DNA of 60,371 bases from Polyangiaceae bacterium. GTDB taxonomy: Bacteria > Myxococcota_A > Polyangia > Polyangiales > Polyangiaceae. Below are positions 8,242 to 60,371 of this stretch, in pieces. Under the pieces are notes generated by a model. The model was not told the origin of the DNA. It saw only the letters and a program-made list of their open reading frames with translations, and did no database searches. The stretch's first letter is position 1. Each line of letters opens with the position of its first letter. A program made the position numbers and the translations under genes. The DNA lies in assembly GCA_050287085.1 (NCBI GenBank), contig JBNKBE010000030.1, positions 1 to 60,371 of the forward strand, given 5' to 3'.

Positions 8242-8540
8242 GCGGGCTCTCCCGCTGCGGAGGGCGATGTGTTCCGTTCCTGGGCAAGTGCAGGGAGATT
8301 TTGCGGGCTGGCTGCTCTAGTCCGCGTTGGCGCTCTGTCGACTGACGCCACTGGGCCACGGACCGGGTGTGGCGCTGGTGGCATTGTGGGCATCGCGCGG
8401 CCCTCCGCACACAATCACCGAGCTTTGCTTGACGTTCATGTCCTACTACTCAAGGACGCTGGAGAGCGTCTTAGGCCGGCTGCGAGAAAGTGTGCCGCGT
8501 GTGAGCGAGTGCGCACTGTTGCCCAGGAAAGGTCCATTCT

Positions 8541-9026
8541 ATGAGTCTGTACGAATTCGAAGTGACGTCATTGCTCGGCGAGGAGCCCTACTCGCTCGAC
8601 CGCTACCGCGGCAAGGTCTTGCTGATCGTCAACACGGCGTCCAAGTGTGGCTTCACGCCTCAGTTCGAGGGGCTCGAGCGCTTGTACGCAGACTTCAAGG
8701 AGCGCGGCCTGGTGGTCTTGGGGTTTCCCTGCAATCAGTTCATGAATCAGGAGCCGGGGGCTTCGGATGAAATCGCCTCATTTTGCCAGAAGAACTATGG
8801 TGTGAGCTTTCCGATGCACACCAAGATCGAGGTCAACGGCGCCCAGGCGCATCCGCTCTATGAGCACCTGAAGAAGGCGGCACCCGGGTTGCTTGGCAGC
8901 GAAGCCATCAAGTGGAACTTCACGAAGTTTCTTGTCGGCAAGGACGGCAAGGTTGTCACGCGTTATGCGCCCAAGACCGAGCCGGCTGCGCTCGCCGCAG
9001 ATATCGAAGCCGAGCTGGCCCGCTAG
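8541..9026 (+). CDS. gpx: Glutathione peroxidase (Cys type)
   Basis: VNTASKCGFTPQ, GFPCNQF, IKWNFTKFL; AGGA RBS. Confidence 0.96.
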   Translation: MSLYEFEVTSLLGEEPYSLDRYRGKVLLIVNTASKCGFTPQFEGLERLYADFKERGLVVLGFPCNQFMNQEPGASDEIASFCQKNYGVSFPMHTKIEVNGAQAHPLYEHLKKAAPGLLGSEAIKWNFTKFLVGKDGKVVTRYAPKTEPAALAADIEAELAR

Positions 9027-9053
9027 CGCTCGCGTGGGGTCAGCTGAGTGTTC

Positions 9054-39338: not shown

Positions 39339-40796
39339 CTATGAGAGCGCCATGAGCCGCAGACGAACGTCGGCGATGAGGTTCTCCAGTAGATCCCCGG
39401 AGCTCGCTTCGCCCAACTCATTCAAAACGGCCTGAACCAGGGGCTGGCTTAGGAACGTGTCGGTGTCCGACCAGAGCGCGGCCTTCTGCATACGGCTGCG
39501 CGCGTGGTTCATGAGGTCGGGCGTGGGCTCGTTGTGGGCAATGTCGTTACGAAGCTCGCGGATGCGGCCCCCGAGCGCGACATCGAACTTCTTCAACGCG
39601 TCACTCTGGAGGAAGTACTGGGCGATGCGCGCACCGGGACCGCCGTCGCCGTCGTAAACCCAGTACCAATCGATGCCGTCGATCGTCTCTTTCAACTCGA
39701 ACGGCCGCTTCCGATCGTCGTCGGAGCCATCACCTTTTCTGAGGAGCTTGTCGCCCGTCGGCGCTTCGCCGCTCTTGACCTTGAAGCACCGGCGCTTGTT
39801 CGGGTCGGAGGAGCGCTCGATGCGCTTGCCGAGCCTGTCCCAGAGCGCGGCTTCGAAGAACGCCACGCTGCCGTGAACCGCTCTCGGAATGTCGCCCGCG
39901 CGAAGCGCCAGCTCAACGCGCAGCCCGGCCCGCACCGCCATGCGGCGGTGGTTCAAAACCGCAAGATCGCAGGCCGTCGGCAGGGGCAGCGATGAGGCAA
40001 AGCACGCCAGCCATTCGATGACCTGCGTCCACTCCTGGCCAGGCGCGCCTTCGAGATGGCTGACGGCACCCCACGCGCCGAGGAGGTTGCCCTTCTCGAC
40101 GAGCGAGAGGGCATGCCAGCGTGCGCGGTACGCAGCGGCTGGGTGGAACTTCTCTTCGACAGCTCGATCGTCTTGATTGGCGCGATTGCCATCGGGCACC
40201 TCGAGCGCCGTGACCCTCGGCCCGCCGACGCAGTGCAGCCGCACCAGCTCGTTGATCAGCTCATTGGCTGCCGCCAGGCCGCCCGTCGTTGCCACGAACA
40301 CGCGGTCATTTGGTTTCAGGCCATATGTGGCGCGGCCAACAGCTTTTGAGAGCATGGAGACCACCGAGCGCCGAACGACCGCGTCGACCTCGTTCGACGG
40401 ATCTTCGAGCTGCTCGTCTCCTGTCAGAAACGCTACACGCGTCACGTTCTCTACGCCGCGATCGCGAAGTCGGCACTCCATCACCTCGCCCGCGAAGCGC
40501 GGATCCCGAGCATCCTGCCGCCTAGTCTCGAGAATGAGTACCGACGTTGGCAGTGAGAGGGCGAAGTGCGCGAGTAGGGCATCGAGCTTCGGCGTGCAGA
40601 GAGGCAGGTCGCCCTCGGGAAACACCTTGATGAGGTCTCGACTCCTGCCCTTCGGAGCGTCGACCACCGACCACGAGCGCTCCTTGATCGCGTCGTGCAG
40701 CGTGCCGCAGGTGTTGCCGTCCAGCTTGTGCCGCCGTTCGTTCACAACGAGCTGCACGTCGGTTTGGCCCACCGTCACCACGAGCAGCTTGGTCAT
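39339..40796 (-). CDS. CARF-HEPN ancillary ribonuclease (Csm6/Csx1-like, divergent)
   Basis: CARF-like motif I LVVTVGQTD and motif II VFVATTGG; HEPN RxxxxH motif LRNDIAHN; ATGA overlap with the upstream cas7 gene. Confidence 0.75.
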   Translation of the reverse strand: MTKLLVVTVGQTDVQLVVNERRHKLDGNTCGTLHDAIKERSWSVVDAPKGRSRDLIKVFPEGDLPLCTPKLDALLAHFALSLPTSVLILETRRQDARDPRFAGEVMECRLRDRGVENVTRVAFLTGDEQLEDPSNEVDAVVRRSVVSMLSKAVGRATYGLKPNDRVFVATTGGLAAANELINELVRLHCVGGPRVTALEVPDGNRANQDDRAVEEKFHPAAAYRARWHALSLVEKGNLLGAWGAVSHLEGAPGQEWTQVIEWLACFASSLPLPTACDLAVLNHRRMAVRAGLRVELALRAGDIPRAVHGSVAFFEAALWDRLGKRIERSSDPNKRRCFKVKSGEAPTGDKLLRKGDGSDDDRKRPFELKETIDGIDWYWVYDGDGGPGARIAQYFLQSDALKKFDVALGGRIRELRNDIAHNEPTPDLMNHARSRMQKAALWSDTDTFLSQPLVQAVLNELGEASSGDLLENLIADVRLRLMALS

Positions 40797-43126
40797 GATG
40801 ACCTGCCGTTCTTGTAACGGCGGTTGCGCGAGTGCTCGGCGCGCAGCGTGGTGTGGAAGGTGTAGATGTGCCTCTCGCCGTTTCTGTCGGCCTGTTGCGG
40901 ACGCGGGTAGTCCGCCGCCTTCGGGTGGTTGCGACGATGGATGGCGAGCCATTCGTCCTGCGTCGCGGTCGTCTGGTGGTGCGTTGTCGCCCAGCCCACG
41001 AGGTCAGTCTCGGACTTGAGCATCGGCGCGTCACCAGCCTCATCGAGCAGTAGGAGCGCCTTCGCCTCGATGCGCACGCTGCCCCAGCCGAGTGGGCGTG
41101 CGTAACCGAGCTTCGAGCAGTAGCCATCGGTGTGCGTGCCACCGAGCGCACTCTTGAACTGGTCTGGGCAGAACGCGACAACGATCGCCGCCAGCTCGGC
41201 GGCGTCGAGATCGCGGAAGCGCACGGTGAATCGGAACTTGCGCCCAGGCTTCGACGCCTCGAGCGCGAGCGTGCTCCGGTCGTTTTGCCTGTTCGCATCG
41301 GAGGCGTCCTCGGCCTGCGCGCCCTCGCGATCGAGGTAGAACTTTCGCCCCGCCAGCTCGCCGGGCGCGTCGTAACCAGTGGCGTCGCCGTAGGTCACGA
41401 GCGTGGCCTTGTCCGAGGGCCGCGACCGCGGATGGTGCGGCTGCTTCAGGTAGTGTTCGACCGCGCTAGGTCGGGGCATGCCGAGTTCTTTGAGGAAGGT
41501 CGGCTTCAGGAAGCGGTGGTCATCACTGTCGCTCTCTTCGACGACCTCGAGGCCAGCATTGACGAATACGCGGCCCATGAGCTGCGCGTGGTCGTTCTCG
41601 CCGATGCCCGCGCTGCCCTCGTTGTCGCCGGTGTAGCCGAGGAGTCGCCGTACCGGTGACAGCTCCTTCGGTGCGCCATTTCCGCCCTTCTCGCGCTCAT
41701 TGTCGAGCTCATTGTCGAGCTCATTGTCGAGCTCATTGTCGAGCGGGAAGAGTCCGTGCCGTTCGTAGCCGCCCCCGCGTCGACGGACCGAGTCCGTGTA
41801 CGCCCAGCGGTAGTAGTAGTGCCAACCGAGCGATACGATGCACTTCTTCTCGATGTCCCACTCGACCCAGATCAGATCGCCGGGCTGGAAGACCTCGTCC
41901 TTCGCGGCCTTGAGGATTCGGTTTCGCGCGGCATCACCCTTCACGGTGTTGGGCACATCGGGATGCCGCTCGGAGAAGTGGCCGTGGTCGAGATCCGTGA
42001 GGTGCAGAACCGTTGCAAGGTAGCCGTCCTGAACCGCCTGCGAGAGAGTCGCCGTATCCGTCGGTTGACTCGGGTTTGCAGTGAGCCGCGTGTGGAGGTT
42101 GCGCTTGGAGTTGAGTCTCTCGCCCGCGCCTTGACCGCCTCGATATGCGGCACCGTTGCCGTCGTCGAAGCGGTAATAGTTCGCGTTCTGCTCCCGCCTC
42201 CTGTCGTAGCGAAGGTTCGTGGGCAGCAGCTCAAGCTTCGTCGGTACACGAATCTGGTTCGTGCCATCGATCGCCTTCAGCTCGACGCCGTCGTTCGGCA
42301 CGCGAGCGATGCGCGCGACGAGCTTCGGGTTCGGCTGGTTCGGAAAGAGCGCGTTCGGGCGGTACGAGTACGAACGCTCGGCGACGCGCTCCATCGGCGC
42401 GCCAAGCAGCGCGCCCAGCTCGTGGCGAAGCAGCCCCTTCAGCGAACCGCCGGGGATGATGACCGGCCGCTTCCTCCACGGCGCACGCAGTGGGCAGAGC
42501 ACCGACTTCTTGTTGGCGATTTGCCCAACGCCCGCGACGTTGGCGGGGACGGGCCAGTCGCTCTCGTTCTCTCCGACCTGTCCACGTTCCCAGCCGACGA
42601 GGAGCGGCGTGAGCGCCTCGAGCTCGAAGCGGATCTCGCCAGAGAGGCGGCCCGCGCTGCTCGTTCCGTCGTGCCAGATGGGAGCTGAGGTCGTCAGGTG
42701 CGTCGGGAGCGCGACGAAGCCGTAGGGCTTGCCGGGGAGCGGCTGCGCGTTGTTTTCCGGGGCTGCCTGTCGCCCCTGTTGCGGGCGGTGTCCACGACCG
42801 CGCGGAGCCTGGCCACTTCGTTGTTGCTGGAATCCCCCCTGTCGAGGTTGCTGCGCGGGTTTCGGCGCGGCGGTGGCTGCGATGCTCGTATCGCCGCCGT
42901 CGATCACTTCGAGCCCAGCGCCGTGCAGCTTCTCCCGCACCTGCTCAATGTGCGTGGGCTTGGCCGCGCAGATGACAAACTCGCTGGCCACGCTGGCTGC
43001 GACGATGTCAAGGTGTGGCATCCCGAGTTGGTTACTCTTCAGCCTGTTGATCGCGCCCCGGTCGCGCGGCTTGTCGTCGAGCGTACGGACGCGGATGCGG
43101 TGTTGCTTGTCGGGCTTGCCAGGCAT
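40793..43126 (-). CDS. Type III-D Cas7 with large insertion (TIGR03986-like RAMP) and an extra N-terminal domain
   Basis: PYGFV, SGEIRFELEALTPLLVG, IIPGGSLKG.LR, RLLGY, GRV, LGMPRP, GRKFY, FRFTVRF, G-loop KLGYARPLGWGSV. Confidence 0.85.
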   Translation of the reverse strand: MPGKPDKQHRIRVRTLDDKPRDRGAINRLKSNQLGMPHLDIVAASVASEFVICAAKPTHIEQVREKLHGAGLEVIDGGDTSIAATAAPKPAQQPRQGGFQQQRSGQAPRGRGHRPQQGRQAAPENNAQPLPGKPYGFVALPTHLTTSAPIWHDGTSSAGRLSGEIRFELEALTPLLVGWERGQVGENESDWPVPANVAGVGQIANKKSVLCPLRAPWRKRPVIIPGGSLKGLLRHELGALLGAPMERVAERSYSYRPNALFPNQPNPKLVARIARVPNDGVELKAIDGTNQIRVPTKLELLPTNLRYDRRREQNANYYRFDDGNGAAYRGGQGAGERLNSKRNLHTRLTANPSQPTDTATLSQAVQDGYLATVLHLTDLDHGHFSERHPDVPNTVKGDAARNRILKAAKDEVFQPGDLIWVEWDIEKKCIVSLGWHYYYRWAYTDSVRRRGGGYERHGLFPLDNELDNELDNELDNEREKGGNGAPKELSPVRRLLGYTGDNEGSAGIGENDHAQLMGRVFVNAGLEVVEESDSDDHRFLKPTFLKELGMPRPSAVEHYLKQPHHPRSRPSDKATLVTYGDATGYDAPGELAGRKFYLDREGAQAEDASDANRQNDRSTLALEASKPGRKFRFTVRFRDLDAAELAAIVVAFCPDQFKSALGGTHTDGYCSKLGYARPLGWGSVRIEAKALLLLDEAGDAPMLKSETDLVGWATTHHQTTATQDEWLAIHRRNHPKAADYPRPQQADRNGERHIYTFHTTLRAEHSRNRRYKNGRSS
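41695..41742. repeat. Perfect 12-bp tandem repeat x4 (encodes LDNE x4)
   Basis: GCTCATTGTCGA four times, in frame inside the Cas7-insertion gene. Confidence 0.95.
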
Positions 43127-45039: not shown

Positions 45040-47045
45040 CGTGCCCCCTTGCGCAGGTCTGCGCGCAGCCAGCGCACGAACACACGCGCGCAGAGTTCTT
45101 GTTGAGGCGCCTGGATCTTGTTCAGCTCGTTCAAGATCGCCTTCGCGTCCTTGTGCTTCCAGCTTTTTCCGCCCGCCGTCGTCGGGCTGAGGCGGCTCGT
45201 GAGCGCACCCTGGTTGTTGGCTTCCAGCTCGCCGACGAGATCGAGCCACTGCGAGAGGCTCGGTGGCTTCTGCCCGTTCCCATCCTTCTTGTCGGGCTTT
45301 GCCAGCGCGTCGTGTTGCCCGAACCATTTCCGGGTCGTCTTTGCGATGGCTTCCTCCGCGACGTCAGCGACAGGCATAGGTGGGCTGCTCGTGCCGACCT
45401 CCCTCGTCACACCGGGCAACACCGCGTCGAGGCGGAAACGCCCAAAACCCTCGTGCGTGCGCTCGCCGAGCCACTCATGCTTGGCCGCGCGCGCCGCCAG
45501 CCTAGCGACTCCCGCGCCTGATATCTCGAAGACCGAGCCTCGACGGATGGCTGCCGCAGGCATCCGCCACAGGCGGGAGGTGCCGTTGAAGCCGTGGACC
45601 ATAACATTGTCTTGCAGAGACTTGCCCAGCTGAACACTCTCGCCGAGTAGTGCCGTCAGTGCCTCCACATCGAGCGCGGTGCGCCAGCGCAGGTAGTCAT
45701 CCCGCACGAGTAGGTCGGAAGTGAGCGTGAGCAGCGCGGTGCTGTTTGTCGTCGTTGCTGCTGGGGCGCTAGCCCACGCAAGCTGCGCGACCTCGACCGG
45801 CGCCCCGGCGCGCCCAACACGTAGCCAGCGGCGACCTCCGAGCACGGGGCCAAGCTTCTCCGCGAGCTTCTTCAGGTCGTCAGGAGAGCCAGCTAGCTCG
45901 GCGAGGAAATGCGTTTCTTCAACAATCTGCTCGATGGCGAAGAGTGAGGCGTCAGCCTGCTTTGGATCGGGCCTGCCGTTGCGCAGGCGCACCCGGCGTG
46001 CAGGGCGGAACGACAACCACTCCGGGTTTGCGGCCTCGCGGAATACGAAGAGGTCGTCCTCGGGGCGCTTGAGCTTCTCTTGCACGCTCCATGCATCCAC
46101 TCGTTTCGTGGGTTTGGTCGCCAGCGCCCACCAGGGCACGTCACCGGCCGCGCCCTTCGGCTTCTCGCTCTGCAGCGAGAGCGGTGCAGGCAACACCTCA
46201 ACGCCTTCGAGCTTCGAAGGCGCATGCGGCAGTGGCAGTGCATCGCTCACGGAGACCTTCCCCGACGTGAGCAGCGAGGCTGTTGCCCGATCGCCCTCGG
46301 AGATGAGCCAGCCGGCGACGGCACCGAGTAGCGTGCGGCCCGGCACGAAAGCAAGGCTCGGGACCAGGTTGTCAGGTGTCGCCGTTGCGGTGATGCAGAG
46401 CGGATCCCGGTTCTTGAGCAGCAGCAGCAGGTGGCCCGTTGGGGCACCGATCTTCTTGGGTGTGCTCGCGACGTCCGATAGGGCGAGCGTCACCCGGCCC
46501 GCGCCGGCGGCGCGACCGCCGCCGAGGGCATCGACCTCCAGCACGAGCCGCTTCAGCGTGTCGAGCTGGCTCGCGGGCAGCTCAATCTCGCCGACTAGCT
46601 TCGTCCCCTTCGGCACGTACTCGATGACCCGCAGCGTGTCGTCCTTCGGCGCGCGGTTATCGAAAGCCTCGCGCGCGGTGGAGCGCCAGATGTGGGTTTC
46701 GGGGCTGTCGTTCGCGTAGAGCGACGTGAAGACGGCGCGTTGCTGCTCGCTCCCTGCGCGACCGAAGAACGCGCCGTCATCACGGCCCAGCCTGCGAGCA
46801 GCGTCACGCAGCACGCCCTCGAGGTGCGAGGCCCAGATGACGGGGCGATCTCGTCGATCACGCGCGATGAGCGCGTCGATGCCACCACCACCCGAGCCCG
46901 ACCCGAGGTGTGCATCCGAGGTGAACTGGGCGGTCAGCGTGCGACGTACCCAGCCGGTCCCGCTCTGCGCTGTACCGACGTCAGAACCGGTGGGCTCAGG
47001 AGCAGGGGGCCGCTTCGGGAAGTGCGCCTTGCTCTTCCTAGACAT
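45036..47045 (-). CDS. Cas7-Cas5(Csx10)-Cas11 fusion
   Basis: SDAHLGSG..IDALIARD..PVIWASHLEGVLR and G-loop LGGGRAAGAG (Cas7); FVPGRTLLGA, LTSDLLVRD, RGSVF and LGERTHEGFGRF (Cas5/Csx10); helical tail PSLSQW..L..W (Cas11-like). Confidence 0.8.
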   Translation of the reverse strand: MSRKSKAHFPKRPPAPEPTGSDVGTAQSGTGWVRRTLTAQFTSDAHLGSGSGGGGIDALIARDRRDRPVIWASHLEGVLRDAARRLGRDDGAFFGRAGSEQQRAVFTSLYANDSPETHIWRSTAREAFDNRAPKDDTLRVIEYVPKGTKLVGEIELPASQLDTLKRLVLEVDALGGGRAAGAGRVTLALSDVASTPKKIGAPTGHLLLLLKNRDPLCITATATPDNLVPSLAFVPGRTLLGAVAGWLISEGDRATASLLTSGKVSVSDALPLPHAPSKLEGVEVLPAPLSLQSEKPKGAAGDVPWWALATKPTKRVDAWSVQEKLKRPEDDLFVFREAANPEWLSFRPARRVRLRNGRPDPKQADASLFAIEQIVEETHFLAELAGSPDDLKKLAEKLGPVLGGRRWLRVGRAGAPVEVAQLAWASAPAATTTNSTALLTLTSDLLVRDDYLRWRTALDVEALTALLGESVQLGKSLQDNVMVHGFNGTSRLWRMPAAAIRRGSVFEISGAGVARLAARAAKHEWLGERTHEGFGRFRLDAVLPGVTREVGTSSPPMPVADVAEEAIAKTTRKWFGQHDALAKPDKKDGNGQKPPSLSQWLDLVGELEANNQGALTSRLSPTTAGGKSWKHKDAKAILNELNKIQAPQQELCARVFVRWLRADLRKGAR

Positions 47046-48543
47046 GGGCGGCCTCCTCGGCGCTGTCGGTCCGAGCGGTGTTGCGACCGAGGCGCGTGAT
47101 CTCGGCGATCTCCACGAGGTCGAGGAGCGCAGTGATCGATGCGTTGCCCGCGGGTTGCCACGGCTCCCTCACGCCCGCTTTGGCGAGCGGCCCCTTCGCC
47201 TCTTGCGGCAGCTCAGCGAACGCCAGCTCCGAGAGCGCGCGACCACGCGATAGCTGCTCGACCAGGTACCGAAGCTGCGAGCGCGGCGCGTGCGTGAGTT
47301 GTTGAGCGCCGCGCACCAGCCCTTGCAGCGAGTCGACCCGATGCTCGCCGAGCACATCGACCGGCCGCTGCGAGAGCACGCGCAGCTCGCTCTCGCTGCC
47401 GCGCAGCCAGTCGCGCCGACGCACCTTCACGGGGTCATCGACCCACGCCGTGCTGAAGACGGCCCAGTCGACGACGGAGCGCTTCGGTTCGCCCTCCGAG
47501 AGCCCACGGAAGCGGCGCTTCGCGGAAGCTGCGAGCTGCTCGGCGACCTCGTGCAGCCGATGGATGGGGATGGTGTGCTTGGCGAAGACCACGCCAACGC
47601 CGAGGGTCAGCTTGAAGCGATTGCTGTCCGTCTGGAGCGTCTCGAGCTCTGCGCAGAGGGTGACGACGAAGGGCAGCGCGATCTCTGCGCGGGCCACGAG
47701 CAAGAGGTCATCGCCGCCGAGCATCAGCGGGATGAGCGGCGCTCGGCCGGTGTCGGGGCAGTGCGTGTTGATGGCCTTCTGTACGGCGCACCGGAGGAGC
47801 ACGCGGTTCCTATGAAAGAACGCGGCACGCTCGCTGTCGCTCCCATCCTTCCCGACGCCGCTGCCGACGCCGTTGCCGTCGGCGTGGATAAGCGCGAGGT
47901 AGCCGTCGCCCACCAGCTCCTTCAGTTCTCGGGGGCGTTCGAGTGTCCGGAGCTTCGTTTCCGCGCTCAGTAGACTCGCGAGGTCTTTGGCCTCACCTCC
48001 TTTGGCGCGCCGCTCGGCATTGTGCCGATGCGCCACGTCGAGAGAGACGGAAGGGGAGTCATCGCCCTGTTCGACAATGGCCGACGCGAGCCCGCGCCCG
48101 GTCCACTCGCAGGGTGCGAGCACCGGCAGCTCGGTCGAGACATGCGCCTGGCTCTTTGCGCACGGTTTGCCGCCGATGGAGACGCGGAAGCGTAGGCCCG
48201 GGAGGGTCTCTCGCAGGAGCTGCCCGGCCTCCCTTACGAAAGTGTCGGCACCTGTTCCAAACTGCGCCTCGAAGTGCCCGCCGTCGCGCGAGAGAATGCC
48301 GTCCCTCGCGTCAGCGGCGGGATCGTCGTGGTCTTTCAGAGGATCGCTGTCGCAGGTACGCGGGAACGTCTCGTCGCTCGGGCTGAGCGTCCAACCGCGC
48401 CCGGTCTCGCGTGCAAGCTTCGGCAGTGCAACGCGCAGTGTTTCGCCGAGGAGCGCGTTCGCTCCGACCATCGCTCGCAGGCGCGGCACCGCGAAGAGCC
48501 ATGTCTGGACGCGCTGGAACTCGATATGAACACGCGGTGTCAT
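47038..48543 (-). CDS. cas10: Minimal Cas10 (no HD domain, intact Palm2 GGDD)
   Basis: RVQTWLF..PRLRAMVGAN, GGHF, PCEWTG, LIHADGNGVG, PLMLGGDDLLLV, LGVGVVF..HTIP...AEQL..SAK, VDW; GGAGG RBS. Confidence 0.9.
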   Translation of the reverse strand: MTPRVHIEFQRVQTWLFAVPRLRAMVGANALLGETLRVALPKLARETGRGWTLSPSDETFPRTCDSDPLKDHDDPAADARDGILSRDGGHFEAQFGTGADTFVREAGQLLRETLPGLRFRVSIGGKPCAKSQAHVSTELPVLAPCEWTGRGLASAIVEQGDDSPSVSLDVAHRHNAERRAKGGEAKDLASLLSAETKLRTLERPRELKELVGDGYLALIHADGNGVGSGVGKDGSDSERAAFFHRNRVLLRCAVQKAINTHCPDTGRAPLIPLMLGGDDLLLVARAEIALPFVVTLCAELETLQTDSNRFKLTLGVGVVFAKHTIPIHRLHEVAEQLAASAKRRFRGLSEGEPKRSVVDWAVFSTAWVDDPVKVRRRDWLRGSESELRVLSQRPVDVLGEHRVDSLQGLVRGAQQLTHAPRSQLRYLVEQLSRGRALSELAFAELPQEAKGPLAKAGVREPWQPAGNASITALLDLVEIAEITRLGRNTARTDSAEEAAHV

Positions 48544-48582
48544 CTTCCTCCGTGAGGGAAAACGCTGGCATGGCGACGACCT

Positions 48583-48596
48583 GACAGCGAGCTGTC
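48583..48596. promoter_or_regulatory. Palindrome GACAGC-GA-GCTGTC 40 bp upstream of cas10; putative operator
   Basis: Perfect 6-bp inverted repeat in the cas10 upstream region; function inferred. Confidence 0.35.
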
Positions 48597-48988
48597 TGGA
48601 AACGGAACCAGACTTGGTCGTTGCATGGTTCGTTGATGCTTCGGATGTGCCAAGGAGGCGGATCCCAATGAATACGACATTCTGGCTCCCCCGGGGTGGC
48701 GCGTAGGAATCGTTCACCCTGGTGCCGACTACCCCCTTGTCGACAGCTGTGACGCGACCGTCAGAGGGAGACTACGCGGTGCGAGCTTGATGAACAATGA
48801 TGAGCAATCATCAATTCGGAAGCGGAAGCTGCTCCAGGCGGACTAGTTTCCTTCCGCGTTTCCAGGTCGACCGCAGAGCAGCGCCGGCACGACATCCCTC
48901 GGCAGGTAAGTCGCTCTGTCAGCCGCTCGCGGAGGTGGCAGCGTTCAGCCAGGGCGGGGGTTCCAAAATCGGGAGCGTCGAGTCTGGC

Positions 48989-50638
48989 TCATTCATCCGG
49001 AACGAACATGCCTAGTCCGAAGTGGGCGCCGTAACCCAGCGCGAGCGGGCCCCTCACAGGTTGTTCGAACACCACGCGGAAGCCGTAGCCTAGGTTGCTA
49101 CTCCGCGCCCCTCCGCCCTGTCGCGAGCGCAGGGTTTCAAACTCTAACCAACGCAGCGGTTGGTCTCGTACGTAGGTTTCGGCGATGGGATCGACGCGCA
49201 ATACGGCGGGATAACCTCCTTCGCGCAGCAGACGTCGCAGATCGTGCTCTGGGGAGCCGATCTGCAGACCACTTTCGTCCAGCTTCGGCGCTCCCGACCG
49301 AGTTGCCTTGGGATAACGCGTTGGAACAAAAGGCGTGCGAGAGCACCATGTGTCAGCTTCTACGAGTATCGAGCATTGCCCGGCGTCGGCGTTGAGGCCG
49401 GCAAAGTCTTCTCGATGCCCTAGTCCCAGCAGAATCAACTGAAGCTCGCGTGGAGCCTTCAGCTCACGCCCCTTCAGCTTCCTGAGCCGGGTGAGTGCTT
49501 GCCGCGCTCGCGGATCGAATCCCATTGGGGCAAAGAGTGTGATGTGGCTGATGGAGCGGCGAGTGCCGTTAACTTCAGGCAATACGTAGGCGTGTTGGTT
49601 GCCACGCAGGGGCCCGCCTGTAGCGTCTTTTCCGGCGAAGACTGGAGCTGCGTCAGAGAGACTCATCAGGCATCGGCGGGTCAATTCCGCAATCGGTAGA
49701 GCTTGTGTCAAGCGGGGCGGGACCTGACTTGCTACGGCAAAGCGCGCAACGGTGGGAAACGGGGGGCTCCCTGTAGTTGACGTTCGCAGCGGCGCTGGCG
49801 AGAGGGCGTCTGAGGGGCGAGTGTAGTCGAGCCAATGGGTGCCAGGGGCCGAGCTCCAACGTTGCTTGTACAGAGCTGTGGTATCCGCCTCGAGCGCATC
49901 GAGCAGCGTGCCGGGCAGGGCGTTGGCGACATCGTCCCTATCCTTTCTGCTCAGCTTTGCTGATTCCGGCGCCTTGCCCTTGGCTTCGAGTGCTCGACGT
50001 AGGTCTTCCAATTTGCGCGAGAGCAATTCCTCCATAGTGCTAGACTTCCAGGCGGCGACGGCTTGCGTCGAGAGGGGAGCTTGAAGCCGGATCAGTTCTT
50101 CGCCGGCGGCTGGTGTTTGCTTGGCGGCCAGCGGTCTGCAATTGGCAACGAAGGTCGGGGCGAGTTCAGCCTCGGGATTCTGTACTAGAGAGGCATGAGC
50201 CCAGGATTCCGCTCGTCCAAGGTAGGACAAGCGGTCTAGAAGCCTTGACAATGCCGCTTCCTGTTTCGGTAGCAGCGTCACTTTGGGCCATACAATAGCG
50301 AGGCACTCTTGTCGGGCCACGTGTACGAAGGCATCAAGGATCTTGGTTGTTGCTTCTCTGCCCTTGTCCAACTTGCCTAGGGGCATGTAGTGGCGGGAAT
50401 GGGAGGCTACCGCGGGAGGCAGCGAGTAGTGGGGCGTCTCCGAGTTCATAGACTCGAGCAGTTCCGCTAGCTGTTCGCGGTCGATTATGTCTTTGCCCTT
50501 GAGGTGCCAGGTTGCCACGAGTGCTCGCAGGAGTCGCCATGGACTTGGCGGCCATTCAACGGCTCCTTCGTTGACGTGCTGGCCCCAGGGGGTCGCGTGA
50601 TATCGCCCTGCTAGGAAGGTAAGCTCAATGGCCAGCAT
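48989..50638 (-). CDS. csb2: Type I-G Csb2 (Cas5-Cas6 fusion)
   Basis: GRYHATPW..EWPPSPWRL.RAL, YLGRAESW, HAYVLP, W.SRTPF, C-terminal Cas6 G-loop GPLALGYGAHFGLGMF. Confidence 0.93.
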   Translation of the reverse strand: MLAIELTFLAGRYHATPWGQHVNEGAVEWPPSPWRLLRALVATWHLKGKDIIDREQLAELLESMNSETPHYSLPPAVASHSRHYMPLGKLDKGREATTKILDAFVHVARQECLAIVWPKVTLLPKQEAALSRLLDRLSYLGRAESWAHASLVQNPEAELAPTFVANCRPLAAKQTPAAGEELIRLQAPLSTQAVAAWKSSTMEELLSRKLEDLRRALEAKGKAPESAKLSRKDRDDVANALPGTLLDALEADTTALYKQRWSSAPGTHWLDYTRPSDALSPAPLRTSTTGSPPFPTVARFAVASQVPPRLTQALPIAELTRRCLMSLSDAAPVFAGKDATGGPLRGNQHAYVLPEVNGTRRSISHITLFAPMGFDPRARQALTRLRKLKGRELKAPRELQLILLGLGHREDFAGLNADAGQCSILVEADTWCSRTPFVPTRYPKATRSGAPKLDESGLQIGSPEHDLRRLLREGGYPAVLRVDPIAETYVRDQPLRWLEFETLRSRQGGGARSSNLGYGFRVVFEQPVRGPLALGYGAHFGLGMFVPDE

Positions 50639-50641
50639 GGC

Positions 50642-53776
<3,135 letters not shown>

Positions 53777-53784
<8 letters not shown>

Positions 53785-56242
53785 CGTAGCCACCCGCTTG
53801 TTCCGTACGACTTGCTCGCCAGTCCGCGACTCGCACCAGCATTTCCAGCAAGGCGAGCCGGAAGGGACCGAGATCGGGTGCGTCCCGCAGAGAAAGCGTG
53901 CGTTCGAGCCAGCTACCAGAGCCGAGACGCATGACCGATAGGTCGAGAGCTACGTTTTCCAACGAACGCTCATCAGCCAATTCCAGCGCCAACAAGGTAT
54001 CACCGTCCCACACGCCGCGCGCAAACAGGCGGTCCTGCTCTGCCGGTGCGGCCTCGCCCGGGAGCGCCCGAATTGACAGGCGAACTTTCCCATGATGAGC
54101 GGCGACCAAATAGGCAACCAGGTTTCGAAATCGCTCGCTGGGGGCTGAGCCCTGAGTGAGCCAAGCGAGTGCAGACGCCAGTTCATGGCGGAAATAGGGG
54201 CGTGTAGCTGTCGAGCGAAATTGATGATTGGACTTTGCCCACGGTCCAGGGCCCACGGGCTGGGCCGAGGGAAGCTCAGCCACGGGTGAAAGCAGCTTAT
54301 CCTGAAACGCCGGGTGAGCCTTGCCTACGTCGTGCCAGAGCCCGGCGGTGCGTAGAGCATCGGTGAAGTCGTCAAGATGAAGTGCGCGGCCTACGCGCTC
54401 CGCTTCATCACGCACGTGCCCCAGATGATCGCTTAGCCGCACCCACCTCCCACCGAGGAATTGGCTCGCCGGATCGTCGTCGTAGGTGCTTTCGCCGGGT
54501 CGGGTCGGGTCGTCGGGGGCGGTCGGTGGGGTAGGTTGTTTGAGGCCAACTTCTCCGGTCCAGCCCAAGTCAGGATCATAACCACCCGCAGTCGGGTGGA
54601 GCAGTAGTACTTGCCCAGCACGAAGCGCGCTTTCGCGTTGCCACACCTTCTCCAAAGGGTTCCAGCGCCACGCTCCAAGGGGTGTATTGCGAGCTTTGTC
54701 TTTCCGGTATCTTTGATCTAGTTTGGTTGCGAATTGTCGCGCCGAGTGAACGGATACTCGGCACAGTTCGTCGCGCTGGGGAGGCGGAAGGGTTCCATCG
54801 GGCTCGCTTTCAAAATGGCGCCAGTAGAACTGCACATCGGTATCGTTTGCATCCCTTACGTAGCGCGATACGTCGATGTCGTCTCCCGATAGATCAGCCG
54901 TGGTATCGAATAGTTCGAGCAGATCTCGACGTCGCAGTACCGGGCGTACAACTTCCGCGGGATGATATTGGAGCCCTTGAAGAGCCTGAGGACCAGCGTC
55001 GCGCGCGGTCTCGTCCAGCTCGCTCAGAAGACGTCGTGACTGGGTGAGCTCCGCTGCGTCGTACGGAAGTGTGGTGTCTGCTTTGGGGTCATCCGACTGG
55101 ATATCGATCCAGAATACCGCAGCCTCCTCTTCGCCGTATCGATTGCAGCGACCGAAGCGCTGGACCAGTGACGACCAGGGAGCCAGCTCCGTAAATAGTG
55201 TTCGACTGGATACGTCAACGCCAGCCTCCAAAGCCTGTGTTGCGACCACGATACGTGGCCGGCTTCGTTCAAGCAGTAGCTGCTCGTGTCGACTGCGATC
55301 GAGCCTGCGGAAGCGGGAGTGAACTAGCGCCACGTCGTCGGAAGTGACGCCATCGAGCTCTTGCAATGCCTGATAGAGGGCTTGGGCGCGTTGCACGCGA
55401 TTGACGATGACGAGTGTGAGGCCTCCGCGGGTGTCGTGTTCCACCGCGACGCGTGCTGCGAGCTTTCGGGCGTAGCTGTGCACTTCTGTGGACGAGTTCA
55501 ATACTACGTCGTCCAGCTCTTGAATGGGCTTCTTTGCCCCAACACGCGCTTGTACGAGCGAGCTAGATAGATCTTCGCTTTCGAGCCTACTCTTGAGCCA
55601 ACCGTTCGTCGGTCTCGGATGGTCAACGGTGCGCAGCTGGGCATCCCCAAGGGTGGCGCTCATCCACAACGAATGAACACCTCCAAGCACTCCGAGCTTC
55701 GTTCGTAGGCCTTGAAGCTGAGCGCTGGTCTCGATTGCAACCCCCATCAACTGTGTTTCGTCGAAGATCCAGAAGCTGTTGTTGTTGAGCAATGCGAAGT
55801 GAACTGGCCACATATAGCGACTCATGGCAAAGCCACGATTCAATGCGCGAGACAGCAACATATCTTGCGTTCCGACGATAATTGCGGAGTGCTCAGGGTT
55901 GTGTTGCCATTCCTCGTCCACATCGCCGCCCATTAGGACGTGCACTGTTGGAGCCGGCAGGTCGCGTTGCTCGAAGAGCGGGGCTGCCGCCTCGCACCAG
56001 TTGGTGGCTACCTGCGCTGTCTGATGAACCAGCACGCGCATGGGGAGGCAGTAGATCAGACGTAGTCCGGTGGTTGGATCTCCGCCAAGTCGCTTGTAGA
56101 GCCACGCGACGATGGCGGCTGCCGTCTTGCCTAGGCCGGTTGGAATGTCGAGCAATGTGGGCCACGGCTCTGTGCCCAGGCGGGCCTGATACGGAAAAGG
56201 GGCTCGACCCGTCACCGTCTCAAAAAACTTGTCGTAGTTCAT
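53777..56242 (-). CDS. cas3: Type I-G Cas3 (SF2 helicase with C-terminal HD nuclease)
   Basis: PTGLGKT, DETQ, MSAT, HSRFR, ATQALEAGVD, QRFGRCNR; C-terminal LSDHL, WHDVGK, RHELAS, HHGK, ADWRAS. Confidence 0.95.
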
Positions 56243-56321
56243 GTAGTCCCGGGCTTGTATCTATTGAGAGCTCGATTCCGAACGCGGGTTGGGGAGCCAG
56301 GAGGTGTCATAGTGCGAACCA

Positions 56322-56338
56322 TTGACATCCGAGGTCAT
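56322..56338. promoter_or_regulatory. Putative operator TTGACATCCGAGGTCAT (TGAC-N7-GTCA) upstream of cas3
   Basis: Palindromic half-sites; 14/17 identical copy upstream of cas4-cas1. Confidence 0.55.
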
Positions 56339-56385
56339 GGGCAGCAGCGCGAGTGATTGAGCTCATGGAGCGCCTGTGTTGGAGG

Positions 56386-57477
56386 TCAACGACGAGCATC
56401 GTCGGGCGTCGACGCGTACTGCTGAAGCCCTGCTTGGTGCAGCGCGCGCACGCACTCTACCAAGCTCGGGGGCGCGACGGCGCGGGCCTTGCCACCGAAG
56501 CCCGCAAGCCAGGCCGCAACCTCAGGCATACCACCCACGTGCATGGTGAGGCGCGCACCTCCTCCCGCAAGGGCAGTGACGTCGGCGGTGGGGTGCCACT
56601 CTCGCTCATTGGCAATGTGAGCGACCTCCGCGTCGAAGTCGATGACCACTGTTTGAGCCGCACCGTGCAGGACTCCGAAGCCGGCCCCGGTATATTGCTC
56701 CGGGTGGAACTCAGCGCGTCGTTCGAAGGACTCATCCAGAAGCTGCACTTTCTGAATTCTCTGGACCGCAAAGGTGCGAAACGCTTGGGCCAGGCGGCAA
56801 TAGGCCACCAGGTATGCGCGTCCGGCATGAAACCACAATAGATGTGGCTCTACCTGGCGTGTTGTTGCGTCCTGCAGGGGCGCCGCGTAGACGACTTGCA
56901 GTACCTGCTCTACCGCGCAAGCCTCCTCTAGTAGATCGATCGTGGCTGAGTGAGTGCGCAGCTTTGCCGGGGCGGGCAGCGTGGCGCGGATAGCGCTGCG
57001 CATGTCACGGATCCAAGCACGCCCCGCGTCGGTCAGCTGCGCCGTCAGTCTGGTGCGTAGTTGACGATGCTCGCGAACGAAACCTGTCTCACCCAGGCCC
57101 GGCAGCAGATCTTCCGTGACCAGCAGCGTCAGGACCTCGGAGGGGCGTAGCGCGGCCAGCGCTCCGCTGGGGCTTGCGTCGCGCCGCCAGTAGAAGCGAC
57201 CGCCTTCTGAGTAGATGGGAAATCCAGCGGCGGGAAGCTGCTCAAGATCTCGATAGAGGGTACGGAGCGTGCACTCGCCTTCCAGGAGGTCTAGAAGTTG
57301 CTGAACCGTGAGGCCAAAACGCGATGACTCCAAGGCGCGTAGCAGCGCAATCTGTCGTCGCAGCTGTCGGCCTCGCCCAGAATCGCCGTGACGCAACGAC
57401 TTGGGGCGTGAGGAACGTGGCTGCGAGCTGTCAGCAACACGCAAGACGCGACCTGAGTTGTTGTTCTCTCTTCCCAC
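56386..57477 (-). CDS. WYL-domain transcriptional regulator (wHTH-WYL-WCX)
   Basis: RTLYRDLEQL (HTH), RQVEPHLL..YLVAYC..FRTFAVQRI (WYL), WLAGFG..VAPPSL (WCX). Start uncertain. Confidence 0.9.
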   Translation of the reverse strand: MGRENNNSGRVLRVADSSQPRSSRPKSLRHGDSGRGRQLRRQIALLRALESSRFGLTVQQLLDLLEGECTLRTLYRDLEQLPAAGFPIYSEGGRFYWRRDASPSGALAALRPSEVLTLLVTEDLLPGLGETGFVREHRQLRTRLTAQLTDAGRAWIRDMRSAIRATLPAPAKLRTHSATIDLLEEACAVEQVLQVVYAAPLQDATTRQVEPHLLWFHAGRAYLVAYCRLAQAFRTFAVQRIQKVQLLDESFERRAEFHPEQYTGAGFGVLHGAAQTVVIDFDAEVAHIANEREWHPTADVTALAGGGARLTMHVGGMPEVAAWLAGFGGKARAVAPPSLVECVRALHQAGLQQYASTPDDARR

Positions 57478-57832
57478 TGGTAGTTGAACCGTGGCGCATG
57501 CGCCGGTCTCAAGTCAACAGCGCCGTTGCACTGGAGGCCAGAGCGGATGTTGCCACAACGTTTGTTCCCAAGTGAGGCATCGACCTAGTGCTGTCGGATT
57601 ACAGAGCACCTCGTGAAGTAGTGGCTCAGTGCCAGAGGTTGCGTTCGCGGCACTTCTTAATGAAGTGACTGTTTGACGTCGGGGCACATTTTCACGTGTT
57701 GCTGGAGCCAGCAGAAGGCTCTGATGAATTCATCGGATCCGAATTCATACCCTGGAGAACGACCATAGGAATTAGAACGCCCTGCGAATGTTCAGTAGCG
57801 GGGGACGACGGACCAGAGCGTATCCTAGGTTG

Positions 57833-57849
57833 TTGTCATCGGAGGTCAC
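57833..57849. promoter_or_regulatory. Putative operator TTGTCATCGGAGGTCAC upstream of cas4-cas1
   Basis: 14/17 identity to the cas3-upstream site, at a similar distance (about 80 bp) from the start codon. Confidence 0.55.
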
Positions 57850-57927
57850 GAGATTGGGCGATTGTGCTTCTTGTCGTGACTGGCGGGCGGCTGTTGATAT
57901 TGCTGCGATGCCCGTCACACTGACGGC

Positions 57928-59652
57928 ATGGAGCAAGCCAAGCGCAGTCCGACACTTCGAGATGACAGCTCTCTGAAGCGGGCAAAATCGCTACCGCTTG
58001 GCGAAGCCCCTATGGTCCCGGCTCGCATGGTCAACGAAGTACTGTATTGCGAGCGCTTGATGGTACTGGAGTGGATTCAGGGGGAGTGGGCCAGCAATGC
58101 CTTCACAAGTGACGGCGTTCGCGTGCACAAGCGGGTGGACGCAGGCGGGGGCAAGCTTGCTAGCGTCGACGAAGAATACCAGGCACGCTCCGTAGAGCTT
58201 TCTTCTGAGACCCTTGGGGTAACGGCAAAGCTTGACTACGTAGAGGTGAGAGCCGGGGAGGTCATAGCCGTCGAGTACAAGCGCGGAAAGCACCCCAACG
58301 TTCCTGAAGGGGCATATCTTCCGGAGCGCGCGCAGCTGTGTGCGCAAGTATTGCTGCTGCGTGAGCACGGATATGTCTGCGACCAAGCTGCGATCTACTT
58401 CGCAGCGGAGCGCAAGCGCGTGCCCATCACCATTGACGACGAGCTGATTGCAACCACAAGAGGAGCCATTGATCGGGCGAAGGAACTCGCACGCGTCCGG
58501 ACGTTGCCACCTCCGTTGGTGGATAGCCCGAAGTGTGGCGGATGTTCCCTGAACGGCATTTGCCTGCCTGACGAGATCAATCATCTTGTCTCGACACCAG
58601 CTGCTCCAGGTCGGCATGGGTCGCCGGTACGGCGACTACAGTCGGCGGTAGACCATCGAGTTCCGATCTACGTGACGGCGCAGGGCGCGCGAGTTGGAGT
58701 GAGTGGGAAGGTACTCACGGTCAATACTCGTGAGGAAACGATAGAAAAAGGGCTGCCGCACATCGCTCATTTGGCGCTGTTTGGTAACGTCCAGATGAGC
58801 GCGCAGGTGACGCGTGCTCTGTTGCAGAGCAACGTGCCCATTCATCACTTCACATATGGAGGTTGGTGGGTCGGCGCAACTTTGGGCGCGGATAGTCGGA
58901 ACGTGCAGCTGCGTGCAGCGCAATACGCGGCACATCAGGATAGAAGGACTTGCTCACGGTTGGCTGCGACGTGGGTGCGTACGAAGATTCTGAATAGTCG
59001 GACCTTGTTGCGGCGCAATCTGCGACAGCCGCAGCCTCAGGTATTAAAGGAGCTAAAGCACCTGGCTGCGAAGTGCGAACCGGACCTTCCTCCAGAGAGT
59101 CTCCTCGGGATTGAAGGAACGGCGGCCCGTCTTTACTTCGGCGCTCTTCCAAAGATGTTCACAAAGGAGAAAGCGGGTCAGGGCTTTACTTTGGAAGGCC
59201 GCAATCGGCGTCCGCCACGTGACCGCGTCAACGCTCTGTTGTCTCTTTCCTACTCGTTGCTGACGAAAGACGTGCTGATAGCGGTGAGGGCGGCGGGGTT
59301 AGATCCGCTCATTGGCTTCTATCACACTGCGCAGTTTGGGCGTCCGTCGCTAGCGTTGGATCTGATGGAGGAGTTTCGCCCGATCATAGGAGATTCGGTG
59401 GTCATTTCCGCAATCAACAACGGGGAAGTACAAGAGGACGACTTTGTGTGTGCGGCTGGTGCGGTTGCGCTTAGCAGTGCGGGACGCCGGGCGTTCATCA
59501 AGTGCTATGAGCGACGGCTGCAGCAGGAAGTGGCGCATCCGATCTTTGGCTACACGATGTCGTACAGAAGGGTACTAGAAGTACAAGCGCGACTACTCAG
59601 CCGCGTACTGCTTGGTGAGCTGCCTGAGTATCCAGGCTTTCGGACGCGTTAG
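57928..59652 (+). CDS. cas1: Cas4-Cas1 fusion
   Basis: Cas4: YCERL, LDYVE, VEYKRG, QLCAQ, KCGGCSLNGIC. Cas1: FGNVQ, GIEGTAARLYF, RNRRPPRD.VNALLS, GFYH, LALDLMEEFRP. Confidence 0.96.
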   Translation: MEQAKRSPTLRDDSSLKRAKSLPLGEAPMVPARMVNEVLYCERLMVLEWIQGEWASNAFTSDGVRVHKRVDAGGGKLASVDEEYQARSVELSSETLGVTAKLDYVEVRAGEVIAVEYKRGKHPNVPEGAYLPERAQLCAQVLLLREHGYVCDQAAIYFAAERKRVPITIDDELIATTRGAIDRAKELARVRTLPPPLVDSPKCGGCSLNGICLPDEINHLVSTPAAPGRHGSPVRRLQSAVDHRVPIYVTAQGARVGVSGKVLTVNTREETIEKGLPHIAHLALFGNVQMSAQVTRALLQSNVPIHHFTYGGWWVGATLGADSRNVQLRAAQYAAHQDRRTCSRLAATWVRTKILNSRTLLRRNLRQPQPQVLKELKHLAAKCEPDLPPESLLGIEGTAARLYFGALPKMFTKEKAGQGFTLEGRNRRPPRDRVNALLSLSYSLLTKDVLIAVRAAGLDPLIGFYHTAQFGRPSLALDLMEEFRPIIGDSVVISAINNGEVQEDDFVCAAGAVALSSAGRRAFIKCYERRLQQEVAHPIFGYTMSYRRVLEVQARLLSRVLLGELPEYPGFRTR

Positions 59653-59654
59653 GC

Positions 59655-59951
59655 ATGGCACAACAACACTGCTATATTGTTACCTACGACATCTGCGAGT
59701 CCAAGAGGCTGCGGCGTGTATTCAAAGAAATGAAGAGTTGGGGCGTGCACGTGCAGTACTCTGTATTTCAGTGTGTGCTGACGGAGCAGCAGCGCATCGA
59801 GATGGAGTCCTGTCTCGAGGACATCATCAGCAACGGGGTCGATCAGGTATTGGTCATCAACATTGGCCCTGCTGAAGGTCGAGGCAATGTCGCCATATCT
59901 GCTCTCGGTCGCGTATTTGCGCCTAAGGTCCTCGACCGAACCGTGATATAA
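59655..59951 (+). CDS. cas2: CRISPR-associated endonuclease Cas2
   Basis: YIVTYDI..KRLRRVFK..WGVHVQYSVFQC..DQVLVI. Confidence 0.96.
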   Translation: MAQQHCYIVTYDICESKRLRRVFKEMKSWGVHVQYSVFQCVLTEQQRIEMESCLEDIISNGVDQVLVINIGPAEGRGNVAISALGRVFAPKVLDRTVI

Positions 59952-60162
59952 GAGACCGCACGTCGTCCGCCCGCGCGAGCACCTCGGTGCCTGCAAAACC
60001 CCTGGCAGCCCTCGTGTCGGCGTAGCTCTTTGAAAATTCTATGGTATTCTCCGTTTCCTGCAGCCACCTGTTAGGCGATATGATGCAGCCCCCGCACCGA
60101 CACCACAACCGCTCGCAAGTCCCTCGACAAGTGTCGAACAATATTGAGATTCTGCCAGACGG
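59952..60162 (+). promoter_or_regulatory. CRISPR leader
   Basis: Non-coding, relatively AT-enriched region between cas2 and the first repeat. Confidence 0.75.
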
Positions 60163-60371
60163 GCCTTCCGCGGTCATCGACCGCGGCCCCATTGAAGCAA
60201 GATCTCCTGCGGGTCATTGCCACAGCCCAGCACATGCCTTCCGCGGTCATCGACCGCGGCCCCATTGAAGCGTGATCGTGGACCACCCAGTGATCTGCTG
60301 AGCTATCTGCCTTCCGCGGTCATCGACCGCGGCCCCATTGAAGCAAGACTGGGACCGCCAAGCGTGGATGC
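60163..60371 (+). CRISPR. CRISPR array, truncated by the window end: 3 identical 36-bp repeats GCCTTCCGCGGTCATCGACCGCGGCCCCATTGAAGC
   Basis: Repeats at 60163-60198, 60236-60271 and 60309-60344; two 37-bp spacers plus a partial third. Stem CCGCGGTC-ATC-GACCGCGG and 3' end ATTGAAGC are typical of I-G repeats. Confidence 0.97.

Follow-up and report, generated by a model that had tools for sequence, protein, structure and literature searches.

The III-Dv complex of Synechocystis sp. PCC 6803 (PMC11026444; 8S9T) cuts RNA through three Cas7 aspartates and carries a CRISPR RNA (crRNA) of a fixed 37 nt. The 8-nt 5' tag of the crRNA is held in III-Dv and III-D2 through Cas5, Cas7, and Csx19. In type I-G, the characterised Csb2 holds the 3' hairpin but leaves the 8-nt 5' handle unbound, and its C-terminal domain functions in isolation (PMC9638904). 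Here, we analysed contig C30 (JBNKBE010000030.1; 60,371 nt) of a Polyangiaceae bacterium, hereafter the window, where a III-Dv-like gene block lies downstream of a type I-G operon. The block has no Cas6, and we consider it likely that it draws its guides from the I-G system: Csb2 would cut the repeat, and the predicted free 8-nt tag would be loaded by the III-D complex.

An earlier note on this DNA had proposed such an arrangement, on the basis that crRNA sharing between types I and III is known for I-F with III-B. III-B takes Cas6f-processed I-F crRNA in Marinomonas, and chimeric III-B/cas6f loci exist (PMC5576922). Arrays of types I-A, I-B, I-C, and I-E that are shared with type III are common, and I-G is not among the categories in the available part of that source (PMC8482600). 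Cas6 acting in trans is said to serve the majority of type III systems (PMC12669027).

The earlier note also stated that the type III genes start 445 bp downstream of csb2 on the same strand and that the block holds no cas6, cas1, cas2, or array. The gene calls in the window bore out both statements (gap at 48544–48988). The cas6, adaptation genes, and array that accompany III-Dv are thus absent from the block, and no cas6 was found in the genome. The window is an entire contig of this genome (6.2 Mb, 160 contigs, 96.8% complete). The search of the remaining genome that the note had called for revealed no canonical cas6 (PF10040, TIGR01877, PDLC01477, TIGR02807, PF08798, and PF09618 were all without a match). 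A de novo scan yielded one CRISPR repeat family and no second one, with repeats at the end of C30 (3), across C77 (11 whole), and at the start of C38 (9), which are most simply one array split by the assembly. A single cas1 was found, and the RAMP matches were confined to the III-D block. The self-targeting check found no match longer than 18 nt between the spacers and the genome outside the array. The repeat forms a hairpin (−14.5 kcal/mol, z −2.4) with its stem base 4 nt before the predicted cut. This geometry equals that of the characterised Csb2 substrate, and cleavage to an 8-nt 5' tag is predicted from the sequence.

Csb2 had been put forward as the sole Cas6-type domain, which holds among intact genes. 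A second csb2 at G000:C27:1433-2771 (L145), near a tRNA-Arg gene and without I-G neighbours, carries an internal deletion and a frameshift. The reading frame of its C-terminal Cas6 half remains open and has an ATG of its own, and the DNA of this half-gene is 68–82% identical to csb2 of operons that host the III-D block elsewhere. Hence, all Cas6-type domains found are Csb2-derived, and the word single is true of intact genes only.

The III-D block consists of five minus-strand genes (cas10, three RAMP fusion genes, and a CARF-HEPN gene), joined throughout by overlapping stop/start codons (Table 1). Cas10 showed an intact GGDD cyclase motif, invariant in 33 of 33 aligned homologues, and no HD match, as expected for type III-D, where only 3% of the Cas10 proteins have an HD domain (PMC11229360). 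The best matches of the Cas5 part were Cas5_IIId and TIGR02674, the latter below its cut-off, which marks it as Csx10-type. The C-terminal Cas11 part had no family match; its label follows from synteny with 8S9T, by position only. Residues 1–454 of Cas7-2x aligned with the Cas7-2x fold of 8S9T over 330 residues (Z 15.7, root mean square deviation 4.6). Counterparts of the three III-Dv aspartates were found in D57 of Cas7-5-11, which aligns with the catalytic D26 and is invariant in 28/28 homologues, and in D30 (27/28) and D280 (28/28) of Cas7-2x; D30 and D57 were assigned by alignment, and D280 by position.

The Cas7-Cas5-Cas11, Cas7-2x, and Cas7-insertion proteins are encoded in the III-Dv order. 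The last two are separate genes and no CorA was seen in the window block, which sets it apart from III-D2, while the presence of Cas10 and Cas5 distinguishes it from III-E (a single Cas7-11 without Cas10 or Cas5). The CARF-HEPN gene, whose start was corrected from 40952 to 40796, follows cas7-insertion in all 66 loci with room for it. It combines a CARF sensor with a HEPN R-x4-H motif, the R415 and H420 of which are invariant in 24/24 aligned homologues. The protein had no significant relative in the PDB. Judged by its motifs, it is a predicted effector activated by a cyclic oligoadenylate, which may be cA4, cA6, or another.

Two further observations concern these genes. Cas7-insertion contains four in-frame 12-nt tandem repeats at window:41688-41747 (ELDN repeats), and a CorA-like gene lies directly upstream of a divergent cas10 of this clade at L135:8166-9686, which may use another messenger.

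Hidden Markov model scans showed that the I-G operon is intact on the minus strand (WYL, cas3g, cas8g1, cas7g, csb2), with cas4-cas1, cas2, and the leader end of the array divergent from it on the plus strand. The genes cas3g, cas8g, cas7g (csb1), csb2, and the cas4-cas1 fusion all scored above the NCBIfam cut-offs. The Pyrococcus 'I-G' (Cst) belongs to an older nomenclature. Elsewhere in the window, a MATCAP-family protein, a glutathione-synthetase-like ligase, and an N-formylglutamate amidohydrolase are encoded at window:30473-37723, divergent from the poly-gamma-glutamate genes pgsB, pgsC, and TIGR04332. Two nearly identical 46-nt head-to-tail repeats occupy the intergenic window:27871-27962.

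Table 1. Features of the I-G operon and the III-D block in the window.
Feature	Position	Strand	Evidence and remarks
CARF-HEPN ribonuclease, 485 aa, Csm6-like, PADLOC CARF_m10	39339..40796	-	PDLC01163 E 1e-229
Cas7-insertion, 777 aa	40793..43126	-	TIGR03986 over cut-off, E 8e-53
Cas7-2x with C-terminal Csx19-like domain (~residues 480-637), 637 aa	43126..45039	-	residues 1-454 match 8S9T Cas7-2x
Cas7-Cas5(Csx10)-Cas11 fusion, 669 aa	45036..47045	-	best PDB match 8S9T chain A, E 3.5e-9
Cas10, 501 aa, without HD domain	47038..48543	-	PDLC00919 E 1e-67; best PDB match 8S9T chain C
csb2-cas10 gap, 445 bp	48544..48988		counted to cas10 ATG at 48543; GGAGG upstream of ATG
Csb2 (Cas5-Cas6 fusion)	48989..50638	-	TIGR02165 E 3e-64; G-rich loop and two histidines present
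Cas7g (Csb1)	50642..51583	-	TIGR02570, PF09617
Cas8g1 (Csx17)	51580..53784	-	TIGR04113 E 2e-225
Cas3g helicase-nuclease	53777..56242	-	TIGR02621 E 2e-229
HTH-WYL-WCX regulator	56386..57477	-	Pfam
Cas4-Cas1 fusion	57928..59652	+	NF049935 E 3e-213; sole cas1 found in genome
Cas2	59655..59951	+	PF09827
CRISPR array, leader end	60163..60371	+	36-nt repeat ending ATTGAAGC; 3 repeats; runs off contig end

The block contains no separate csx19. At the csx19 position, Cas7-2x carries a C-terminal domain of ~160 residues, and the two form one open reading frame (ORF) in 67 of 71 loci. The domain is predicted to be beta-rich. It matched neither TIGR03984 nor any NCBIfam model, and a profile of seven Csx19 sequences matched it weakly (score 25.9, E 0.0017; the best of 20 shuffles scored 18.3). 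A three-chain model placed the domain between Cas10 and Cas5 (score 0.83; best of three controls 0.62), which is where Csx19 sits in III-Dv. The model runs agreed in at least 93% of the contacts, with a partner predicted local distance difference test (pLDDT) value of at least 82. Of the 157 solved complexes in the calibration, 116 scored at or above the mark, as did 2 of 215 mismatched pairs. Since this task is unlike the calibration and a similar complex has already been solved, the model speaks for likeness and not for binding. Whole-chain fold searches were dominated by the Cas7 domains and uninformative on this part, the single-sequence fold of the domain reached a pLDDT of only 35, and its Atlas matches were all below 0.8. 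According to the profile and the model, the domain is probably Csx19. Separately, a different III-D system (L171, G289:C42:64117-66399) has a TIGR03984 Csx19 match and RAMP domains in one 780-aa open frame, so that Cas7–Csx19 fusion may have arisen more than once.

The Cas10 search gave 37 loci in 36 genomes and the best 80 of 137 metagenome loci; with the window included, the 118 Cas10 proteins formed 96 clusters at 95%. Csb2 was present in 26 of the 36 block-bearing genomes as compared with 83 of 401 genomes sampled from the window's phylum, a comparison limited by the non-independence of kin, by the spread of the 36 genomes over many phyla, and by a possible overlap of the sets. Canonical Cas6 was found in 8 of the 26 Csb2-positive and 7 of the 10 Csb2-negative genomes (Fisher p 0.058), with three Cas6 models run on all 36 genomes and three more only on the 21 negatives. 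No other Cas6 model matched in 14 of the Csb2-positive genomes, 10 of which had TTGAAGC-type arrays and no TGAAAC-type array. In the phylum sample, type III RAMPs occurred in 39 of 77 csb2-bearing genomes, and on the csb2 contig within 35 kb in at least 8.

The flanks of the Cas10 clusters were labelled by phmmer with the window and locus proteins, and by PADLOC for 204 of 277 unassigned ORFs in the genome loci and 117 of 138 in the metagenome representatives. The ORFs left out of PADLOC mostly overlapped arrays, were already labelled, lay far from the block, or were over the size limit. The csb2 or other I-G genes flanked 31 of the 96 clusters, Hma genes 16, and cas6 2; 47 had no marker (long flanks on both sides in 11, on one side in 13, short flanks in 23). 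The co-localisation of I-G and III-D, which the note had proposed to count across genomes, is therefore recurrent. Among the 31 clusters, L020 has a csb2/cas3 remnant only, and L092 has csb2 with an I-C-like Cascade.

Inspection of these loci revealed nesting in both directions. The block lies between cas3g and cas8g in L009, L011, L012, L013, L043, L094, and L137, and between csb2 and cas3g in L022 and L080. Conversely, a cas3-csb3-cas7-csb2 operon lies between cas7-5-11 and cas7-2x at L083:12980-20905 and L088/L097:13400-20440; the arrangement at L014:13469-17733 starts alike and is ended by the contig end. Many of the I-G/III-D junctions are 4-nt overlaps, and csb2–cas10 gaps of −14, −4, and 0 were found. 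The block also stands between hmaB and hmaC, often with stop/start overlaps (L017, L023, L037, L112, L143, and others), and type I restriction–modification, Lamassu, and further defence systems are among its other neighbours. Half-csb2 genes adjoin III-D genes in L049 and L014. A gene recurring between csb2 and cas10 in relatives was considered as a dedicated Cas6 and rejected, being a Schlafen/AlbA-RecG-C cargo gene.

Several loci differ in csb2 itself or in its surroundings. At L092:1858-6198 and L093:3-8737, csb2 is the first gene of an operon that is otherwise I-C-like (cas5c, cas8c, cas7c, cas3, cas4, cas1), and two arrays with repeat ends GAAGC and GAAAC lie between this operon and the III-D block. 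At L049:253-15458, the I-G genes are followed by a second III-D gene set in which no cas10 was seen, together with a CARF gene, the Cas6 half of a csb2 standing alone, and an array of 85 repeats. Long Csb2 variants (~725–745 aa), apparently with two tandem Cas6-like domains, are encoded at L041:7817-9991, L045:6991-8562, and L083:18692-20905. Genes beyond the trailer end of the array at L006:734-2666 and 7486-9422 encode what we take to be a small two-repeat protein, a HerA-like ATPase, and a TfuA/YcaO-like pair.

Several findings weigh against Csb2 as the supplier of the guides. The assembly is in 160 contigs and most relatives are metagenome-assembled genomes (MAGs), so a cas6 could be missed; in addition, the TIGR02807 search picked up no control at E 0.001. 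The crRNA might then come from another nuclease, either a cas6 that fell into a gap of the assembly or the Cas6 half of the C27 csb2 expressed from its own ATG. The splitting of the array over three contigs would suit the former. The latter is favoured by the open frame and its identity to csb2 of block-hosting operons, by the half-csb2 genes beside III-D genes in L049 and L014, and by the isolated C-terminal domain of Csb2, which has cleavage activity and a higher binding affinity than full-length Csb2 (PMC9638904). However, six Cas6 models were negative on a 96.8%-complete assembly, and the pattern is repeated in the 14 other genomes. The C27 gene is an orphan deletion product, and would still be a Csb2-type enzyme acting on the same repeat. 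This explanation is very unlikely in our view.

Three of the 36 genomes, all of them MAGs, have neither a Csb2 nor a Cas6 match. Together with the occurrence of an own cas6 in only 2 of the 96 clusters and the frequent location in Hma operons, this would be consistent with a block that needs no Cas6, because it matures pre-crRNA itself like III-E or relies on a host RNase. RNase E maturation has reportedly been seen in a cyanobacterial III-B variant. Nevertheless, the block retains Cas5, both solved relatives (III-Dv and III-D2) use Cas6 and the 8-nt tag, and the other 33 genomes contain Csb2 or Cas6, and we consider independence from Cas6 very improbable.

The 16 clusters that adjoin Hma genes and the 11 with long marker-free flanks indicate that proximity by itself is no proof of function. 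The 445-bp gap in the window weighs on co-transcription of csb2 and cas10; within it, we found no sigma-70-like promoter, intrinsic terminator, or ORF remnant, and no similarity to the sequence upstream of cas10 in other loci. Selection on the array by a type III complex should leave a strand bias among the spacers. Antisense spacers amounted to 291/538 (54.1%) in block-bearing loci versus 304/601 (50.6%) in I-G-only controls, a non-significant lean in the predicted direction (p 0.24), with a strand classifier that is only 63–71% accurate on 36-mers. The control arrays were taken from 12 of 20 I-G loci, all from genomes without RAMP matches. The corresponding counts were 11/20 in the window's own array and 41/64 in the Cas6-served array of L042. 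The GC content at third codon positions, 0.78–0.83 in the III-D block versus 0.61–0.67 in the I-G genes, marks a separate origin. These results, the identical stop/start overlaps in Hma operons, and neighbours such as type I restriction–modification and Lamassu could all be accommodated if the block were cargo of defence islands, lodging in whichever defence operon and receiving no functional guides from the I-G array. Against this, all five genes are intact with conserved catalytic residues, the CRISPR neighbours are mostly csb2-bearing (31 clusters versus 2 with cas6), and no crRNA source other than the I-G array was found in the genome. We therefore judge the cargo explanation highly improbable and retain a supply of guides from I-G through Csb2 as the likely one.

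To this the origin of the block adds a qualification. The nearest relatives of the window's Cas10 are L069 and L082 (Shimodaira–Hasegawa-like approximate likelihood ratio test 99), both beside other I-G variants, in a quick tree of 89 rows from which shorter fragments were excluded. Co-evolution of Cas10 with its I-G partners was unsupported in 18 loci (Mantel rho 0.10, p 0.10 for Cas7g; 0.12, p 0.06 for Csb2); the controls in the same loci gave 0.71 for Cas10 versus Cas7-5-11 and 0.85 for Cas7g versus Csb2. Scraps of the csb2 3'-end were found upstream of cas10 in L010, L022, and L039. As its history does not track the I-G partner, the block appears to be a repeatedly captured cassette and not one inherited hybrid. 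The I-G/III-D hybrid of the earlier note is thus probably right as regards the shared guides, but the block is not dedicated to I-G, given the Hma operons, the unrelated defence neighbours, and the switching of partners. One genome (G010) carries both the whole block in an Hma operon (L017) and a truncated cas10 after the I-G operon (L039), a possible snapshot of a move.

With these results in hand, we propose the following mechanism. Cas4-1 and Cas2 would fill the single array, as the sole cas1 suggests. Csb2 would cut each repeat 8 nt from its 3' end and remain on the 3' hairpin, as shown for another Csb2. The free AUUGAAGC 5' tag could then enter either the I-G Cascade or the III-D complex, which would grip it with its Cas5 and Csx19-like domains. 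The 3' end with its hairpin would be trimmed away, as may be expected from the fixed length of the III-Dv crRNA, and this would release Csb2. Because Csb2 and the III-D complex would hold opposite ends of the crRNA, no protein-to-protein hand-over should be needed. How the crRNA passes on, raised earlier as a new question, has become less open: the 5' tag is left free by Csb2, which binds the 3' hairpin (PMC9638904), and Csb2 with Cmr1-6 signalled in E. coli (10.1101/2023.06.23.546230). Upon binding of a complementary transcript, the three Cas7 aspartates would cut the RNA and Cas10 would make cyclic oligoadenylate, in line with the conserved motifs, and this messenger would switch on the CARF-HEPN RNase. 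In general, the cassette may accept any compatible 8-nt-tagged crRNA, mostly from Csb2 and elsewhere from ordinary Cas6.

A more far-reaching version of this proposal can be formulated, although we regard it as rather doubtful. The block would be a four-polypeptide III-Dv plug-in, with Csx19 on Cas7-2x, that gave up Cas6. It would enter I-G and Hma operons precisely at stop/start junctions and thereby be expressed together with the host genes, and its guides could be supplied by Csb2, by the Cas6 domain of Csb2 standing alone, or by an ordinary Cas6. Taken furthest, both complexes would be assembled together from the interlocked operons and share a single crRNA pool in a fixed proportion, and nesting with Hma would be a second functional partnership.

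If the supply of guides by Csb2 holds true, one array and one nuclease would feed both Cas3 DNA destruction and RNA sensing that is independent of the protospacer-adjacent motif and coupled to abortive signalling. Such layering would guard against escape mutants and anti-CRISPRs. With four chains and Csb2 as its sole requirement, the RNA-targeting complex would also be an easy target for reconstitution. The nested loci are natural operons that would allow the partition of crRNA between Cascade and a type III complex to be measured under one promoter. This compact, widespread III-Dv-like clade adds one more fusion to the series leading from many-subunit III-D to single-chain III-E. The sharing of guides is itself already known. 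Within the literature searched, which took in few subscription papers and supplements, we found no description of the Cas7-2x–Csx19 fusion, the two-way nesting, or the Hma nesting, and these features of the clade appear to be undescribed.

Compared with III-Dv of Synechocystis (PMC11026444; 8S9T), the window shares the gene order cas10, cas7-5-11, cas7-2x, (csx19), cas7-insertion, the three catalytic aspartates, and, as predicted here, an 8-nt tag ending in GAA-purine-C, and 8S9T is the best PDB match for three subunits. Unlike that system, the block here is without its own cas6, adaptation genes, and array; it has four polypeptides instead of five, due to the Csx19-like domain on Cas7-2x (~18% identity for Cas7-2x), and is followed by the CARF_m10 effector. 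It also differs from III-D2, as described in the available part of the source, which has Cas7x3 and Cas7-5, lacks Csx19 and Cas11, and is often accompanied by CorA. The I-G part resembles that of Thioalkalivibrio sulfidiphilus (PMC9638904) in its genes (cas3g, cas8g, cas7g, csb2, cas4-1, cas2) and in the 36-nt hairpin repeat with a predicted cut 4 nt past the stem. The III-D block after csb2 is the difference, the available text of PMC9638904 treating the I-G effector alone.

Pairings of I-G or Csb2 with type III have been described before. Of seven myxobacterial hybrids listed, three are I-G/III-D and three I-G/III-B (PMC11237760, Data Set S2), with TTGAAGC-type repeats where these are given, as in the window. 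In the accessible part of that source, the hybrids are tabulated without processing, nesting, or fusions, unlike in the present analysis, and were compared here by subtype label. For Haliangium ochraceum III-B, Cmr1-6 with Csb2 and a mini-array gave target-dependent cA3 signalling and abortive infection in E. coli (10.1101/2023.06.23.546230). Csb2 served there, as proposed here, as the processing enzyme of a type III complex, but the complex was III-B and not III-D, and Csb2 was employed as a tool; the available text describes no csb2-minus control. Marinomonas III-B (PMC5576922) likewise provides a type III complex with crRNA from a type I nuclease, which remains attached to the 3' hairpin after cutting; in the window, by contrast, the donor nuclease would be a Cas5–Cas6 fusion.

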